Source: a virus
Length of the DNA stretch: 64,000 nt
IMG/VR virus record: IMGVR_UViG_3300024518_004461
Span: 32,001-96,000 of that record
Direction: 5' to 3' (one strand)
The position numbers were made by a program, and so were the translations under genes. The first letter of the stretch is position 1. Every line of letters begins with the position of its first letter. The notes below the pieces were generated by a model. It was given only the letters and a program-made list of their open reading frames with translations, was not told the origin of the DNA and made no database searches. Shown piece after piece: positions 47,323 to 55,070 of this stretch.

Positions 47323-48648
47323 TTAAAGATTTTTTGCACATAAGGTTGCGACCTTGCTTCTTTCACCTTTAATAAATGTGATATGTCCTGTGATATCAAA
47401 ATATTTTAATTTTTCAATCACGTAGGTTAAACCGTTTGTAGTCTCATCAATATTCACATTATCTATTTGTTCAATGTCACCAGTCAAAACAATTTTAGTT
47501 CCTTCACCTACTCTAGTAAGTATAGTCTTTATTTCATGCCGTGTCAAGTTCTGGCACTCATCAATAATAATATAAGCATTTTGAATTGAGCGACCACGAA
47601 TATAAGTTAGAGCCTCGACCTCAATTATTCTTTTATCCATATATGACTCTAGCATTAAATTATCATCACCAAATAAGAATCTTAAATTATCTTGAATTGG
47701 CGCTAGCCATGGCACCATTTTATCCTCTAGAGATCCAGGTAAATAGCCAATGTCTTTTCCCATGGGTTGAACTGGTCTAGAAACAATTAATCTATTATAT
47801 ACTGAAGATTCTCCCATTATCTGTTGCAATCCCGCTGCAATAGCACACAAAGTCTTTCCGCTTCCTGCTTTACCAATAAGAGAAACCACAGGAACATTTG
47901 GATCTAAAAGTAAATCCAACGCACAATTTTGTTCTTTGTTTTTTGGTGCTATGCCCCATCCATCTGATTCTTTATGTTGAGGAATTTTTTTAAATTCTGT
48001 ATTCTCATCAATGAATCTAGTAATTGCTGTTTTCTTTTCATTCGACGAAGATACCAGCATTACATATTGATTGGGATATAATTCTGCTTTGTCATCTATC
48101 GCATTATACAGATAAACGCTTTCACCTGTATAGAAACGGTCAATTATTTGATCATCCACAAGTAGCTTTGTAAAGCCACCATACAATTCAGAACTTTCCT
48201 TTATAACATTTTCGCTACTATAGTTTTCTGCATTTACTCCAATAGCATCACACTTAATTCTTAGGTTAATATCGTTGGATACTAATATCACCTTACGGCT
48301 TGGAAACTCTTTTATAAGTGTAAGTGCGGCGGCAATAATCTGATGATCAGCCGTATTAGGATCATAGCCAGAAGGTAATTCAGATAAATCTGGTGTTTTA
48401 GTAAAAACTAAGCCACGCCCTTTTCGAATTCGAATCCCTTTTTGAAAACTTCCTCTATTTCGTAATTCATCTAGGGTTCTAATAATTCCTCTAGCATTTG
48501 CGCCGACGCCGTTTGGTCTTTTTTTGTTGTTATCTAATTCTTCTAATACTACTAGCGGAACATATATATCTCCGTTCCCATAAGAAAAAATTGAATTACA
48601 ATCTGTGAGGTATACGCTCGTATCAAGAACATAAATCTTTTTTGCCAT
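47323..48648 (-). CDS. phoH: PhoH-family ATPase with N-terminal PIN domain
   Basis: YVLDTSV/EELD/DINLRIK (PIN); GKAGSGKT, IGYLPG, YIRGRSI, IIDECQN, GDIEQID. Confidence 0.92.
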   Translation of the reverse strand: MAKKIYVLDTSVYLTDCNSIFSYGNGDIYVPLVVLEELDNNKKRPNGVGANARGIIRTLDELRNRGSFQKGIRIRKGRGLVFTKTPDLSELPSGYDPNTADHQIIAAALTLIKEFPSRKVILVSNDINLRIKCDAIGVNAENYSSENVIKESSELYGGFTKLLVDDQIIDRFYTGESVYLYNAIDDKAELYPNQYVMLVSSSNEKKTAITRFIDENTEFKKIPQHKESDGWGIAPKNKEQNCALDLLLDPNVPVVSLIGKAGSGKTLCAIAAGLQQIMGESSVYNRLIVSRPVQPMGKDIGYLPGSLEDKMVPWLAPIQDNLRFLFGDDNLMLESYMDKRIIEVEALTYIRGRSIQNAYIIIDECQNLTRHEIKTILTRVGEGTKIVLTGDIEQIDNVNIDETTNGLTYVIEKLKYFDITGHITFIKGERSKVATLCAKNL

Positions 48649-49881: not shown

Positions 49882-49898
49882 TGGAGGTGGCGGGAATC
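49882..49898 (-). pseudogene. Orphan tmRNA 3'-end fragment
   Basis: GATTCCCGCCACCTCCA = T-loop 3' part, T-stem 3' strand, acceptor strand CACCTCC and discriminator A; the acceptor strand is identical to that of the intact tmRNA. Confidence 0.7.
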
Positions 49899-49962
49899 AC
49901 AAATTTACCCCTACTTGGGTCCAAGTGATTACCTTTTGTATCTTTATTCATTCTCATTCTCC

Positions 49963-50265
49963 TTAAATCGCCTTCATTTCTGAAAGAAGGTCTTCATAGT
50001 TCTCAATGTATCCGCCACTGGTTTTGCCGTCCAGTCGGTTTAGAAGATTGATAGATGAGAATCCTGCGAAGTATGTTGCATCCTCTCCTGGATATTCTAT
50101 TACTTTATTATCCTCGATGCTTTTGATAATCATATAGTCAAGATCTCTAATCTCTTCTGCCGCTCTTCGATTGAGGGATTTGAGTTTAATGATCTCTTTT
50201 TTTAGATCCCGTAACAAACTATCCTCACTTGGGGCTGGGTAGTTACCTTTTGTATCTTTGCTCAT
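49963..50265 (-). CDS. Hypothetical protein
   Basis: 100-aa ORF with coiled-coil-like N-terminal half. Confidence 0.6.
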   Translation of the reverse strand: MSKDTKGNYPAPSEDSLLRDLKKEIIKLKSLNRRAAEEIRDLDYMIIKSIEDNKVIEYPGEDATYFAGFSSINLLNRLDGKTSGGYIENYEDLLSEMKAI

Positions 50266-50354
50266 TTATTATACTTCATTGCTCTATCACTATTCAACGA
50301 AAATCCCTTAGCACCTTTTTCTTTCTTGACCCATTCAAAGAAATCTTCTGCCAT
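50262..50354 (-). CDS. Small hypothetical peptide (30 aa)
   Basis: MAEDFFEWVKKEKGAKGF...; ATGA overlap with the next gene. Confidence 0.4.
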   Translation of the reverse strand: MAEDFFEWVKKEKGAKGFSLNSDRAMKYNK

Positions 50355-50433
50355 TTAAATGGAATTGGAGGTGTGCGGAATCGAACCGCAGTCCACAATG
50401 CTTAAATAAATTTGCGATATACAAGGTTATATC

Positions 50434-50643
50434 TTAATCTTTCTTCTGAACAAATGCGTAAAGCTTTTCAGCTTCAGCAATTATTTCTTCAGTTGTATAA
50501 GAAGGAACAGCATTTCGCGCTCCATCGGGTTTGATCATTTCATTCTCAAAGTCGCGATTGCATTTATCACCTAGAATACCTTGCGCCATCCCAAGCAATC
50601 CTTCTCGAATTTCATAACCATTTTTATTTTTATTTTCTGACAT
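50434..50643 (-). CDS. Small protein (69 aa) nested inside the tmRNA gene
   Basis: AAAGGAGG RBS, ATG 50643, MSENKNKNGYEIREGLLGMAQ...TTEEIIAEAEKLYAFVQKKD; the stop lies just before the helix-2 3' strand. Confidence 0.8.
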   Translation of the reverse strand: MSENKNKNGYEIREGLLGMAQGILGDKCNRDFENEMIKPDGARNAVPSYTTEEIIAEAEKLYAFVQKKD

Positions 50644-50692
50644 AATAAATGTCCTCCTTTGTGTGTGTGTGTTTCTTACCATCCATATTCGT

Positions 50693-50722
50693 ATTATACG
50701 CTCGAAATTGGATGGTTGTCAA
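50693..50722 (-). promoter_or_regulatory. Consensus sigma70 promoter inside the tmRNA gene
   Basis: TTGACA-N18-TATAAT. Confidence 0.8.
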
Positions 50723-50935
50723 CACGGCTTATTGGGTAACAAGGAAAACCGTAAAAACCCCGCTTTGATGCTTACGCAGCCAAAGTTAATGCAACATTAT
50801 CGTTAGCAATTATTTGTTTTAAGCCTTTTAGTGTTTGCTCATACACCCTTGCACAAATCTATCTCGACACCGTGTCGAACCCAGTTCACCCCCGTAGTAA
50901 TAAGTATATCATAATAATATAATGTCCTAAAGTTT

Positions 50936-51544
50936 TTATTTCCCACCGTGGGGTTCATCTTGTAGAGAGGCAAGAATATCGTCAATCCATACTGTGTTTG
51001 ATATAAAATTGTATAAGCGATTAACCACCCGAAAATCGCCACACTTCTTATTATCCCAGTGAGCTTTTTTGAGGTGAGATGAGTGAAAAGAAAATCCGCA
51101 CGAGGCAATATCTCCCATGACAATTTTATTACCAAAGGAATGTGTTGGAATAGCCTTCCCCCGGTTAGGGAATTTTACTTTCCAAATATATAGAGTGTCT
51201 TTGTTATTGTTTTTTTCTATGTTTGTCGCTAGCGTTTCTAAGGAACCAGTTGTAGGCAAGTGATCATCGTCATCTAAGAACATTATCCATCCATTCTCTA
51301 TTTCTTTATACATCTCATTAAAATATAAATTATATGGAAAATGTTTAAAATTTTTCTTTTTTTCTCTCTTTACCTGTATGTAATCGGTGGAATTTATATA
51401 TCCTAGTGATGACTCATTATCTATACATAAAATATGACGATAATTTTTATAACTCTGTGAGGAAACACTTTCTTCACACTTTATAAAATACTCTTTACGG
51501 TGTGTCCTTGTAAGTATGTTTATTAAAGGACGCTTCATATTCAT
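50936..51544 (-). CDS. Glycosyltransferase family 2
   Basis: INILTRT, SQSYKNY, WIMFLDDDD, GDF; start refined to lie downstream of the tRNA. Confidence 0.8.
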   Translation of the reverse strand: MNMKRPLINILTRTHRKEYFIKCEESVSSQSYKNYRHILCIDNESSLGYINSTDYIQVKREKKKNFKHFPYNLYFNEMYKEIENGWIMFLDDDDHLPTTGSLETLATNIEKNNNKDTLYIWKVKFPNRGKAIPTHSFGNKIVMGDIASCGFSFHSSHLKKAHWDNKKCGDFRVVNRLYNFISNTVWIDDILASLQDEPHGGK

Positions 51545-51547
51545 ATA

Positions 51548-51620
51548 AGCGAATGGCGGGGTTCGAACCCGCAACTTTCAGATTGGAAATCTGACACTCT
51601 GCCAGTTGAGCTACATTCGC
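51548..51620 (-). tRNA. tRNA-Gly (TCC)
   Basis: GCGAATG/CATTCGC acceptor, U73, D-arm, anticodon arm TCAGA-TTTCCAA-TCTGA, T-arm GCGGG-TTCGAAC-CCCGC; CCA not encoded. Confidence 0.95.
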
Positions 51621-52439: not shown

Positions 52440-55070
52440 TTATAGATCGAAGTCAAGTTCTTCTTCATCACCTTCTTCTTCAGTTCCAAGATCTTCTTCT
52501 TCACTAGCTTCTGCATCAATTTCTTCCTCATCAGATTCTACTTTCTCTTCTTCATATTCATCAGTTGTCGGTTCAATAACTTCACCAAGTTCTTTTTCCC
52601 ACTTATCAAAATAAAGTTTTAGATTCGTAATCAAATAATCTTGGAAAGTTTTTTGATCCTCGTCATCACTTAGGGTGTTGTATGATTCTAGGATTTGTTT
52701 TTCTATGGAGTCAAACGATTGCGCGGCCAGTTTTGCTCCGGTTGCGTTTGCTTCTTCATCTTGTTTTTCCTTGTCTTCTTCTTCATCATCGCTCTCGATA
52801 CCTGGGTCAATATCAATAAATTTATCGTCATCTGTTATATCAATTTCAATTTCTTCATCAATCTCAATAAATTCTTCACTGGATGTTCCATCGGTACTCA
52901 TTTCAGTGGCTTGACTATTTATGTTCGCGGTTTCTAAAGCAGTATTGACAGAAGAAACTAATTGAGAACGAAAAGCATCCCGCTGTTCTTGTTTTGTGGT
53001 CAATGATTTATAATCTTGCTCAACCCCAGGAAGGATACTTTTCAATAAGTCTTCCAGAAAATTAATAGCAGTGGATGCGTGTGGCACTCGGTCTGCTTCG
53101 TTTTCTAGAATAAGTTTTTGAATAACTCCTCGCAAAACGTCTTCTTCCACCTTTACTTTTTTATCTGCTTTGGCGATGATTTTGCGGATTGCTTCTCTTA
53201 GAATTGTCTCTTTCATAAAAGTATTCCTATCGATATAGTGTTCTTTAATTTTTTTAGTCATAATGCTCCAAGCCTTTTTCTTATCTTTAAGATTCTTTAA
53301 GGGTATATATTTAGCAAAAGATTTAAAATCGTTATTAGCGATAATCTCTCGCATTTCAGTTCCAGATATTCCACCACCAAACATAGGAGTGTTTATCATT
53401 TCTATAGATAATCCCAAGTCTCTTTTGTCTGCGAAGCTTTGAGCACGATCAAAGCGTGTGTCTTTTTCGTCTTTCTCACCCTTGCCAAGAAAAACTGTCT
53501 CCTCATTGTTGAGAGTTTCTAGATAGTCATATACTGAAGCCACGGGTGTACCTTTATCAGATATCATTACTGACATTCTATCACCAATTCCATTAGCCTT
53601 TATATAAAGTTGCCACAACTTTAAAGATTGATCGGCGTTTACCTCTATTGTCTTCGTTTTATCTGTGGAATATCCCTCACGGGACTTAGGAGATATTATT
53701 ACGATGACTTCATCTGCTCCACTGTCCAATAAATGTTTCGCTCCCAAAAAATGACCAGCATGTGGTGGTTTGAAACCACCAGGATGAATACCTATCGTCC
53801 TTCCAGATTCTTGTTCTAGCATAACTTCTTTTTGTAGGGCGGGAATCTTACCGCGACCATATTTGAATATTCCTAATATTTGATTTGCTGGCGCAAAGTT
53901 TCCTGTAAACTTATAAGTCACCCCATCCCAATCAAATACAAATCCTTCGGTTGCTGTACTAATGTTTTCTGCTTTACCAATCTTTTCCAAATGCTTACGA
54001 ACCACATCCATTACATCATCACGATTAGAACCATTGATTGCATCTATTGCGATTCCAACTTCACCAGCCAAACGCTTTACTTCGGAATCATTATCCAAAA
54101 TAAATGCACTCTCTAAGCCTCTCAACATTTCTACCGAGAAGTCATGAATTGTTTTCTCTAGTGGACCAATCACTTCTCCCATGATTTTCTTTCCACCTTT
54201 CACAAAGGAATTTATTTCTGCTTTTGCTTCTTTATCAAGTCCTTTGGTAATAGTAGTAACTTTAATTCCTTTTTCACCAGCGATTCTTCGTATCAACATA
54301 TCTTTACGAGCATCATCGAGCATGGGAAACTTATTAGCGATTATAGGTGACAATCGTGCATTGACAAAATCACCAATAGTGCTTCCGTCTGACAGGCCAA
54401 CACTAGAGATTATTTTATTGATTCTCTGATCTGCTTTCTTTAAGGCTGCATCGTTCTCAAGGCTCTGTAGGTTCTTGATGGCGTTCATTTGTACCGTAAA
54501 GTCTTCAGCCGCTTCGGATTGCTGAACTCCTTCTAACGCATTTTGCAAAACAGCCACATTGTTGGATACATCAGTATCTTTTATATTTCCAGTTTCGCGA
54601 TCAAATTCAGAATGACCTTTCTGATGAATAACTAAAGATCGAGTATCATAGTTGATAACATTTGGATTCGCCGGGTCCATAATTTCAGCATTATAAAAAA
54701 TATTGGCGTCTTCTCCAAATATTTCTCTTTGTTCTTCGGGGGATAACTGGCTTATTACCTTTTCAAAGGCATCAAAAGAATCAACAAAGGCTTTTTCTAA
54801 CGCACCCCGATCAGCAAACTTACTCGCAAGTTGCATAGCGTCCATTCCACCTGTTTTTATATTACCTTTGTTCCGGGCTGCTTTCGCTTTGCCATCTTTT
54901 ACGGAATAAGAAATAAAAAGGTTTTGACCATCGGTCTTTTCTGTTCCTTTGAGTTCTCCGCTTGATGCGGTATCAAATATTTTTTTTATTTCACCAAAGG
55001 ATAAATCTGGATTATCATATAGGTGATTGAGATGACCGTATAATCCACCCTCTAGTAATAGCGATGACAT
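52440..55070 (-). CDS. 876-aa fusion: ligase-like nucleotidyltransferase domain + HIGH-family nucleotidyltransferase + acidic C-terminus
   Basis: TEKTDGQN (KxDG), YNAEIM, TEGFVF, YKFTG; PGGFKPPHAGH and ISGTEMR; very acidic tail. Confidence 0.7.
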   Translation of the reverse strand: MSSLLLEGGLYGHLNHLYDNPDLSFGEIKKIFDTASSGELKGTEKTDGQNLFISYSVKDGKAKAARNKGNIKTGGMDAMQLASKFADRGALEKAFVDSFDAFEKVISQLSPEEQREIFGEDANIFYNAEIMDPANPNVINYDTRSLVIHQKGHSEFDRETGNIKDTDVSNNVAVLQNALEGVQQSEAAEDFTVQMNAIKNLQSLENDAALKKADQRINKIISSVGLSDGSTIGDFVNARLSPIIANKFPMLDDARKDMLIRRIAGEKGIKVTTITKGLDKEAKAEINSFVKGGKKIMGEVIGPLEKTIHDFSVEMLRGLESAFILDNDSEVKRLAGEVGIAIDAINGSNRDDVMDVVRKHLEKIGKAENISTATEGFVFDWDGVTYKFTGNFAPANQILGIFKYGRGKIPALQKEVMLEQESGRTIGIHPGGFKPPHAGHFLGAKHLLDSGADEVIVIISPKSREGYSTDKTKTIEVNADQSLKLWQLYIKANGIGDRMSVMISDKGTPVASVYDYLETLNNEETVFLGKGEKDEKDTRFDRAQSFADKRDLGLSIEMINTPMFGGGISGTEMREIIANNDFKSFAKYIPLKNLKDKKKAWSIMTKKIKEHYIDRNTFMKETILREAIRKIIAKADKKVKVEEDVLRGVIQKLILENEADRVPHASTAINFLEDLLKSILPGVEQDYKSLTTKQEQRDAFRSQLVSSVNTALETANINSQATEMSTDGTSSEEFIEIDEEIEIDITDDDKFIDIDPGIESDDEEEDKEKQDEEANATGAKLAAQSFDSIEKQILESYNTLSDDEDQKTFQDYLITNLKLYFDKWEKELGEVIEPTTDEYEEEKVESDEEEIDAEASEEEDLGTEEEGDEEELDFDL

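Follow-up and report, generated by a model that had tools for sequence, protein, structure and literature searches.

A compilation of 97,179 unique tmRNA sequences published in 2025 recognizes three gene forms: the standard form, the permuted form, and a form interrupted in the T-loop by a group I intron (PMC11915505). Protein genes within tmRNA genes are recorded there only as homing endonucleases (LAGLIDADG), which some of the introns carry (PMC11915505). Phage tmRNAs, many of them two-piece, are treated in a survey of 2014 (PMC4131195) and in the paper on Melnitz (PMC9004378), and nothing like a nested-gene arrangement is described in either. Full-text searches of the literature returned no report of a non-intronic protein gene nested in a tmRNA.

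The locus described here lies in a 64,000-nt stretch of viral DNA (the window), taken from an IMG/VR virus record of 111 kb that is estimated to be 61% complete. The Rfam tmRNA model, RF00023, aligns to 50893..50365 of the window over its entire length (model positions 1–374 of 374) with a score of 89.6 bits, the gathering score being 47, and leaves approximately 280 nt as an unaligned insertion. The gene is on the minus strand, which the initial annotation did not state, with its 5' end at 50893 and its 3' end at 50366. The features of the region, in the direction of transcription, are as follows.

51548..51620, minus strand: tRNA-Gly(UCC), the upstream, syntenic neighbor (ARAGORN, Rfam)
50903..50911, minus strand: extended -10-like element TGnTATACT, 9 nt upstream of the mature 5' end (sequence and upstream-flank alignment)
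50366..50893, minus strand: whole tmRNA gene, from G1 to the discriminator A, 528 nt (RF00023 full-model match and sequence reading)
50887..50893, minus strand: 5' strand of the acceptor stem, including G3 of G3:U70 (pair counting over 29 tmRNAs)
50847..50874, minus strand: 5' strand of helix 2 (pair counting, helices 2–4)
50820..50846, minus strand: pseudoknot 1, pk1 (pair counting, helices 5 and 6)
50772..50807, minus strand: tag frame, with resume codon GCU, the tag ANDNVALTLAA, and stop UAA within a hairpin (sequence)
50723..50761, minus strand: pseudoknot 2, pk2 (stem 1 by pair counting, stem 2 in three pair-preserving types)
50676..50722, minus strand: segment of about 45 nt that contains a perfect promoter of the sigma70 type, its -10 box inside an inverted repeat (window and one other contig, L120, only)
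50653..50672, minus strand: CA tract and Shine-Dalgarno sequence AAAGGAGG, the translation leader of the cassette (same leader in free-standing homologues)
50434..50643, minus strand: nested gene P0001, 69 amino acids and stop (homologous clusters; dN/dS)
50394..50426, minus strand: 3' strand of helix 2, beginning 5 nt past the stop of the open reading frame (ORF) when counted from the AACCTTG motif (pair counting and spacing)
50374..50390, minus strand: T-arm with a canonical T-loop (pair counting, helix 9)
50367..50373, minus strand: 3' strand of the acceptor stem, followed by the discriminator A at 50366 (pair counting)
49899..50365, minus strand: segment inserted at the T-loop relative to related loci, with ORFs of 30 and 100 amino acids (comparison with relatives)
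49882..49898, minus strand: orphan older tmRNA 3' end, consisting of the 3' half of a T-loop and an acceptor 3' strand, then a T-run (comparison with relatives)

Every element that the initial annotation had listed for a non-permuted tmRNA – G3:U70 acceptor, T-arm, helix 2, pk1, the ANDNVALTLAA tag and pk2 – can be read in the sequence. The acceptor stem is of 7 bp and contains the G3:U70 alanine identity pair; an analogue of the D-loop of the SmpB type is present. The tag frame lacks a start codon: it opens on an alanine resume codon and closes, just ahead of the stop, with a hydrophobic stretch ending in LAA; the same tag is called by ARAGORN in sister alleles of the tmRNA that have no ORF. 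The element at 50903..50911 is the presumed tmRNA promoter, and relatives have TATAAT at the matching position in the upstream-flank alignment. The locus thus shares with the standard tmRNA (RF00023) the tRNA-like domain, the alanine resume codon, the LAA tag, the stop hairpin, and both of the first two pseudoknots; it differs from the standard in that there are only two pseudoknots, that a coding cassette of 233–294 nt with its own ribosome-binding site is present, and that CCA is not encoded at the 3' end.

Neither pk3 nor pk4 was found in the window tmRNA or in the ORF-less alleles, and pk2 is the last pseudoknot in both. Pseudoknots 2 to 4 are typical of the family and not universal; tmRNAs with a reduced pseudoknot ring are known, so the lack of pk3 and pk4 does not speak against membership. 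It does correct one point of the initial annotation, in which the protein gene stood in place of pseudoknots 3 and 4: the ORF-less sister alleles are also without them, and have in their stead a conserved linker of 19–22 nt that joins pk2 to helix 2. The explanation that we favor, and which we regard as probable when taken as a whole, is that the window locus encodes a working phage tmRNA of minimal build, with two pseudoknots and a length of approximately 250 nt without its insert, that carries a small-gene cassette in a loop. A search of the 111-kb record, about 61% of the genome, turned up no SmpB gene, and so SmpB would have to be supplied by the host.

Such genes are readily missed. ARAGORN makes a single call in the window, the tRNA-Gly at 51548–51620, and none at the tmRNA locus. 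It called none of eight nested copies (the window included), compared with two of three ORF-less copies (L088 and L123, but not L132). The Rfam model gives full-length matches to relatives of both kinds (111 bits for L004, 109 for L092 and 119 for the ORF-less L088). Since ARAGORN fails on the nested copies, genes of this form are probably under-reported in phage annotation, which is also the likely reason why the literature does not mention them. A further match to the tmRNA model, of 83 nt and 54.6 bits (above threshold), lies at 115477–115559 in another phage record of 148 kb (G027, which contains locus L028); it may be a mini-tmRNA consisting of the tRNA-like domain only, of the kind reported for mycobacteriophage DS6A.

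The insert is mostly coding. The initial annotation was accurate in describing a promoter, a CA tract, a ribosome-binding site and a 69-codon ORF that ends a few nucleotides before helix 2: the coding sequence of P0001 runs from 50643 to 50437, with the stop at 50436..50434, 5 nt ahead of the 3' strand of helix 2. In nested forms generally the cassette has a CA-rich leader, then a strong Shine-Dalgarno sequence, then an ORF of 63–69 codons, and takes up 233–294 nt between pk2 and the 3' strand of helix 2; the ORF accounts for around 70–85% of the insert. The spacing between the stop and the 3' strand of helix 2 is exactly 5 nt in all 15 nested loci measured.

P0001 belongs to a family of at least 278 clusters at 90% identity, nearly all of 66–68 amino acids and found in marine metagenomes, with a mean column identity of 75–78% and an invariant C-terminus. 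Relatives occur on 106 viral contigs; a collection of cellular genomes yielded five matches in all, four of them on contigs of 10.6 kb or less. Longer, apparently fused homologues proved to be singletons with unrelated domains, and are probably read-throughs in gene calling. An AlphaFold model (pLDDT 76) takes the form of a two-helix hairpin, with helices at residues 9–37 and 51–67. The family has no match in Pfam, NCBIfam or PADLOC, and in PHROGs only matches with E > 0.1; neither fold nor profile comparison found a match in the PDB, and matches in the ESM Atlas are to unnamed viral clusters only.

Where the gene is found in other genomes provides some information. On seven viral contigs located through the protein (L002–L007 and L010; 72–100% protein identity) it is nested in a tmRNA just as in the window. 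In more distant phages, and for most homologues, the gene is free-standing. At seven free-standing loci (L027, L038, L077, L057, L071, L062 and L086) it lies 89–759 nt downstream of a tmRNA, on the same strand, and these neighboring tmRNAs are of normal length (337–372 nt). At five more (L026, L039, L056, L065 and L066) it ends 47–71 nt upstream of a tRNA gene, for Gly, Ala or Met, again on the same strand. The CA-rich leader and Shine-Dalgarno sequence precede 67 of 70 free-standing copies, compared with a background of 2.3%; it follows that the leader came with the gene and is not a part of the tmRNA. A promoter separates the gene from the tmRNA at L027 and a terminator does so at L077, which indicates that genes of the P0001 type were ancestrally independent. 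The one hint as to the function of P0001 is that its genes recur next to tmRNA and tRNA genes, and the copies close to tRNA genes suggest a general link between the gene and tRNA-like transcript ends.

In order to sample the tmRNA itself, viral and metagenome contigs were scanned for the tag sequence. This gave 29 unique complete tmRNAs from marine assemblies (alignment A3); as these share the tag by construction, its conservation among them is not independent evidence. Twenty-five are nested (454–528 nt; L004, for example, has 479 nt) and four are ORF-less (249–256 nt; L088 has 253 nt); a fifth ORF-less locus, L135, is incomplete and stands outside the four. The nested forms carry several divergent alleles of the gene, encoding 63–69 amino acids, and all alleles tabulated share the final few residues. 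Both states, nested and ORF-less, occur with differing variants of pk2, differing types of helix-2 3' strand and of T-arm, and mixed flanks; because the two states are combined in this way with the variants of pk2, helix 2 and the T-arm, the locus is to be seen as a mosaic shaped by recombination. The comparison of alleles shows the gene to be a cassette that, within a recombining population of marine phages, is either present in or absent from the loop of a tmRNA that is minimal in any case. Junctions of nested and ORF-less forms differ by an 11-nt filler, which is compatible with either insertion or deletion.

A chimeric assembly is ruled out as the source of the arrangement: the 25 unique nested versions are spread over many assemblies, and the 528-nt form has a second, independent copy, with three substitutions, on a contig whose upstream flank differs (L120). 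The phages are themselves remote from those in culture: a blastn search of the locus against phages found nothing, PhoH2 shows no more than 37% identity, and there is no close cultured relative. In a third type of T-arm, that of L108, L126, L132, L138 and L087, a non-canonical loop of 8 nt, AGTCGGTG, replaces the 7-nt T-loop that is usual. Nested as well as ORF-less forms have this type, whose stem covaries (GCGGG/CCCGC versus GAGGG/CCCTC); the ORF-less copy that ARAGORN missed, L132, is of this type.

Are the nested tmRNAs still tmRNAs? One alternative is that they are pseudogenes, put out of action when a moron gene was inserted and since then in decay. The interruption of the RNA and the failure of standard finders would accord with this, as would the score of the window copy, which is below the 109–119 bits of its relatives; this lower score is, however, attributable to an extra 45 nt of insertion. 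To quantify the state of the fold we counted 52 pairs on A3, covering the acceptor stem, helix 2, pk1, the tag hairpin, stem 1 of pk2 and the T-arm. Standard pairs occupy 98.6% of cells, compared with 42–51% when partners are slid by one to three columns. Eleven pairs are changed on both sides, compared with zero to two in the slid controls, and none of 500 shuffles reaches the observed values. The pair G3:U70 is present in all 29 tmRNAs.

The same pattern holds element by element. Helix 1 is 100% paired, and its pair 6:66 is UA in 26 sequences and CG in three. The 23 pairs of the helix 2 element (helices 2–4) are 96–100% paired, with five changed on both sides, which gives the covariation that the initial annotation had looked to as a check on helix 2. 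Both helices of pk1 (5 and 6) are 100% paired, with pair types GC/AU and AU/GU/GC, and the T-arm (helix 9) is 100% paired with three pairs changed on both sides; the acceptor stem has one. Stem 2 of pk2, which was tabulated by hand as the MAFFT alignment had misplaced it, exists in three versions that each preserve pairing. Among loci found by way of the protein, and thus independently of the tag, three tag variants occur, all with the reading frame, the final LAA and the stop intact.

Divergence between pairs of nested forms leads in the same direction: the tmRNA core has a median K of 0.094 and the ORF a dS of 1.06, with the core lower in 257 of 261 pairs, a contrast to which gene conversion from functional ORF-less copies could have contributed in part. 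The ORF, for its part, has a dN/dS of 0–0.36, indicative of purifying selection, and all six differences between the ORFs of the window and L005 fall at third codon positions. Against the pseudogene, then, stand the extent of pairing and the two-sided changes in an alignment that includes the nested versions, the invariant G3:U70, the intact tag, and a core divergence far under the synonymous divergence of the ORF; we consider decay very improbable. Neither a decayed helix 2 or tag among homologues nor a chimeric assembly, which were among the signs that the initial annotation had named as fatal to its reading, was encountered. Together these comparisons show that, in the nested state, both the tmRNA fold and the ORF are kept by selection.

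The same data bear on whether the RNA has become chiefly an mRNA, with the tmRNA halves co-opted as its 5' and 3' untranslated regions, delivering strong early transcription, processing by RNase P and at the 3' end, and stability, while ribosome rescue has been lost or is irrelevant. Free-standing homologues are often placed within 75 nt upstream of a tRNA (five loci) or less than 1 kb downstream of a tmRNA (seven loci), and this suggests that tRNA-like transcript ends are in general use with this gene. However, pk1, the context of the resume codon, the tag frame with its LAA, the stop hairpin and pk2 are conserved, with compensatory changes, as they are in ORF-less copies. A pure untranslated-region role is disfavored because it would require none of pk1, tag, stop hairpin or pk2, and we judge it unlikely.

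We turn to the transcription of the nested gene. The promoter of the window, TTGACA-N18-TATAAT at 50722..50693, directly follows pk2, matches the consensus at 12 of 12 positions, and is one of just two perfect consensus sites in the 111-kb record. The segment that contains it occurs in only two of the 25 nested forms, the window and L120; the other 23 run from pk2 straight into the CA leader, and the one promoter-like match in L004 is so placed that transcription would begin within the ORF. With no promoter between pk2 and the ORF, the gene in these 23 must be transcribed together with the tmRNA. The transcript of the typical nested form probably starts at the conserved -10 element 9–12 nt upstream of G1. 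The comparisons thus show a complete tmRNA and a complete small gene that, on the evidence of their arrangement, share one transcription unit and are both conserved, and we infer that the small protein is translated from the tmRNA transcript, which would make this a dual-function RNA. One of two readings offered in the initial annotation, a tmRNA and an mRNA in one RNA, gains support from the 23 promoter-less forms and from the selection seen on fold and ORF.

The other reading had the internal promoter as the origin of a two-piece tmRNA: a separate mRNA, made in the sub-lineage of the window and tailed by the acceptor half, would pair in trans with the 5' half to give a split tmRNA. A perfect consensus promoter placed directly after pk2 in two independent genomes is what such a scheme would call for. 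The promoter is absent, however, from 23 of the 25 nested forms; nor is there an evident terminator or processing site that might release a discrete 5' half; and the promoter is more simply explained as boosting the nested gene along with the small genes inserted 3' of the tmRNA. We find the scheme quite improbable. As a general route it falls, the segment being confined to the window and L120; cleavage inside the ORF, another possible way to two pieces, is taken up below. In the sub-lineage of the window, the segment of about 45 nt would add independent transcription of the nested gene and of the small genes 3' of the tmRNA, and transcription from it would continue into the segment inserted at the T-loop. 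That the promoter segment is a repeated mobile cassette was considered and rejected: none of the other promoter-like sites in the 111 kb is a copy of it, and the viral contigs have none either. It may equally be part of an ancestral full cassette, as free-standing homologues often have a promoter and a stem-loop before the CA leader.

The 3' flank of the window tmRNA has a history of its own. The segment at 49899..50365 also holds a truncated duplicate gene start; it brought the current 3' end of the T-loop and acceptor, with a compensated T-stem. The orphan 3' end at 49882..49898, approximately 470 nt downstream of the working end, corresponds to what in L004, L005, L007, L088 and L138 is the native 3' end with its flank. 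In L132 (1814–2362) and L114 (446–1003) the tmRNA is followed directly on its 3' side by a gene that resembles phage endonuclease families (phrog_3322, E = 1.7e-21; HNH/endonuclease VII-like) and has no match in Pfam. A free-standing endonuclease of the homing type could drive gene conversion around the T-loop and the hypervariable 3' flank. On the 5' side, the tRNA-Gly ends 46–48 nt before the tmRNA in L004, L007, L100 and L123; in the window a gene for a GT2-family glycosyltransferase (50936–51541, minus strand) lies between the two, another indel in this hotspot. The tRNA/tmRNA region of the window is flanked by a PhoH2 gene (PIN and PhoH domains; 47323–48648, minus strand) and by a gene for a protein of 876 amino acids that has no Pfam match (52440–55070, minus strand), surroundings which may constitute an RNA-maintenance neighborhood.

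How might an RNA of this kind work? The tRNA-like domain and helix 2 would clamp both ends, and the ORF would bulge out at the place where permuted two-piece tmRNAs are discontinuous. The helix 2 duplex has an energy of -21 to -30 kcal/mol, and in minimum free energy and centroid folds of full-length nested RNAs the acceptor stem and helix 2 are closed and the Shine-Dalgarno sequence is unpaired (z = -4.9 and -5.5). Such an RNA should still work in ribosome rescue, whether intact or as two base-paired pieces after the ORF is cut or decays; a large loop, or cleavage at the insert, would be tolerated because the insert sits at the natural break of the permuted forms. Termination at the stop codon would bring a ribosome to within 5 nt of helix 2 and unwind the upper end of the helix; with that part of the clamp melted, a single molecule is probably not translated and engaged in rescue at the same time.

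The point at which permuted two-piece tmRNAs are discontinuous corresponds to the position of the insert, between pk2 and the 3' strand of helix 2. Permuted tmRNAs (RF04321) are found in Alphaproteobacteria, in some Betaproteobacteria and Cyanobacteria, and in marine myophages such as Melnitz. They resemble the nested form in having a break or expansion at the same topological place, in halves that are held together by helix 2 and the acceptor stem, and in belonging to the same ecological group of phages; they differ in that the order of the window gene is not permuted, its acceptor half lying downstream of its coding half, and in that here the interrupting segment encodes a conserved protein. 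The window does give a match to RF04321 (56.8 bits), but this re-detects only the 5' half together with unrelated upstream sequence, and the supposed acceptor piece contains non-standard pairs; at related loci, too, matches to RF04321 merely pick up the 5' halves of standard genes. No permuted tmRNA genes were found near homologues of the ORF.

This correspondence is the basis for a reading in which the product is a two-piece tmRNA reached without permutation, the ORF segment being a disposable intervening sequence that host endonucleases would cut after, or instead of, its translation. In the mature, active tmRNA, helix 2 and the acceptor stem would then hold together a tag-bearing 5' piece of approximately 170–200 nt and an acceptor-bearing 3' piece of some 65–100 nt. 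Beyond the topology, this is consistent with the strength of the helix 2 duplex alone, with an ORF region that is AU-rich and structured only locally, and with the frequency of two-piece tmRNAs in related marine myophages (PMC9004378). No processing signal was identified, however, and no conserved helix closes around the insert; a stable one-piece RNA would also accord with the observations, and on sequence the two are hard to separate. We take cleavage of this kind to be a serious candidate, with the balance somewhat against it.

Comparison to other systems helps to place the dual-function RNA that we favor. The intron form of tmRNA also has a protein gene inside the boundaries of the tmRNA gene, but its inserts are self-splicing, always in the T-loop, and encode homing endonucleases (PMC11915505), whereas here the insert is in the pseudoknot ring and encodes an unrelated helical hairpin of 63–69 amino acids. 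A group I intron or other ribozyme in the insert can be dismissed: a permissive Rfam scan gives a chance match only (E = 5.3), the site is wrong, and there is too little non-coding sequence. SgrS/SgrT, RNAIII/delta-haemolysin and SR1/SR1P are bacterial RNAs of dual function; as in the form proposed here, a structured-RNA function and a small ORF read by ordinary initiation are joined in one transcript. Theirs, however, are base-pairing regulatory sRNAs, while here there would be mimicry of a tRNA plus an mRNA, with two frames decoded in two ways. The intervening sequences of 23S rRNA, which are cut out by RNase III with no religation, show that a stable RNA can tolerate insertion in a peripheral loop and work as base-paired fragments; they are non-coding, and their defined RNase III stem has no evident counterpart at this locus.

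Taken further, the dual-function reading leads to a fourth form of tmRNA gene, in which one RNA would be decoded both by initiation at an internal ribosome-binding site and by trans-translation, the two being coupled through melting of helix 2, or in which decay of the ORF would yield a two-piece tmRNA without permutation, and in which the small protein would act on the same pathway. We put this forward tentatively, as possible and rather doubtful in its full extent.

A non-intronic protein gene kept inside a tmRNA would be a new gene form, beyond the three so far recognized (PMC11915505). P0001 is moreover a representative of a widespread small phage protein, of at least 278 clusters, that tends to adjoin tmRNA and tRNA genes. 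The ORF-less, nested and promoter-bearing alleles of a near-identical tmRNA constitute a natural experiment: with them it should be possible to test how the pseudoknot ring may be expanded or broken, how an mRNA and a tmRNA may be combined in one RNA, and how two-piece tmRNAs originate.
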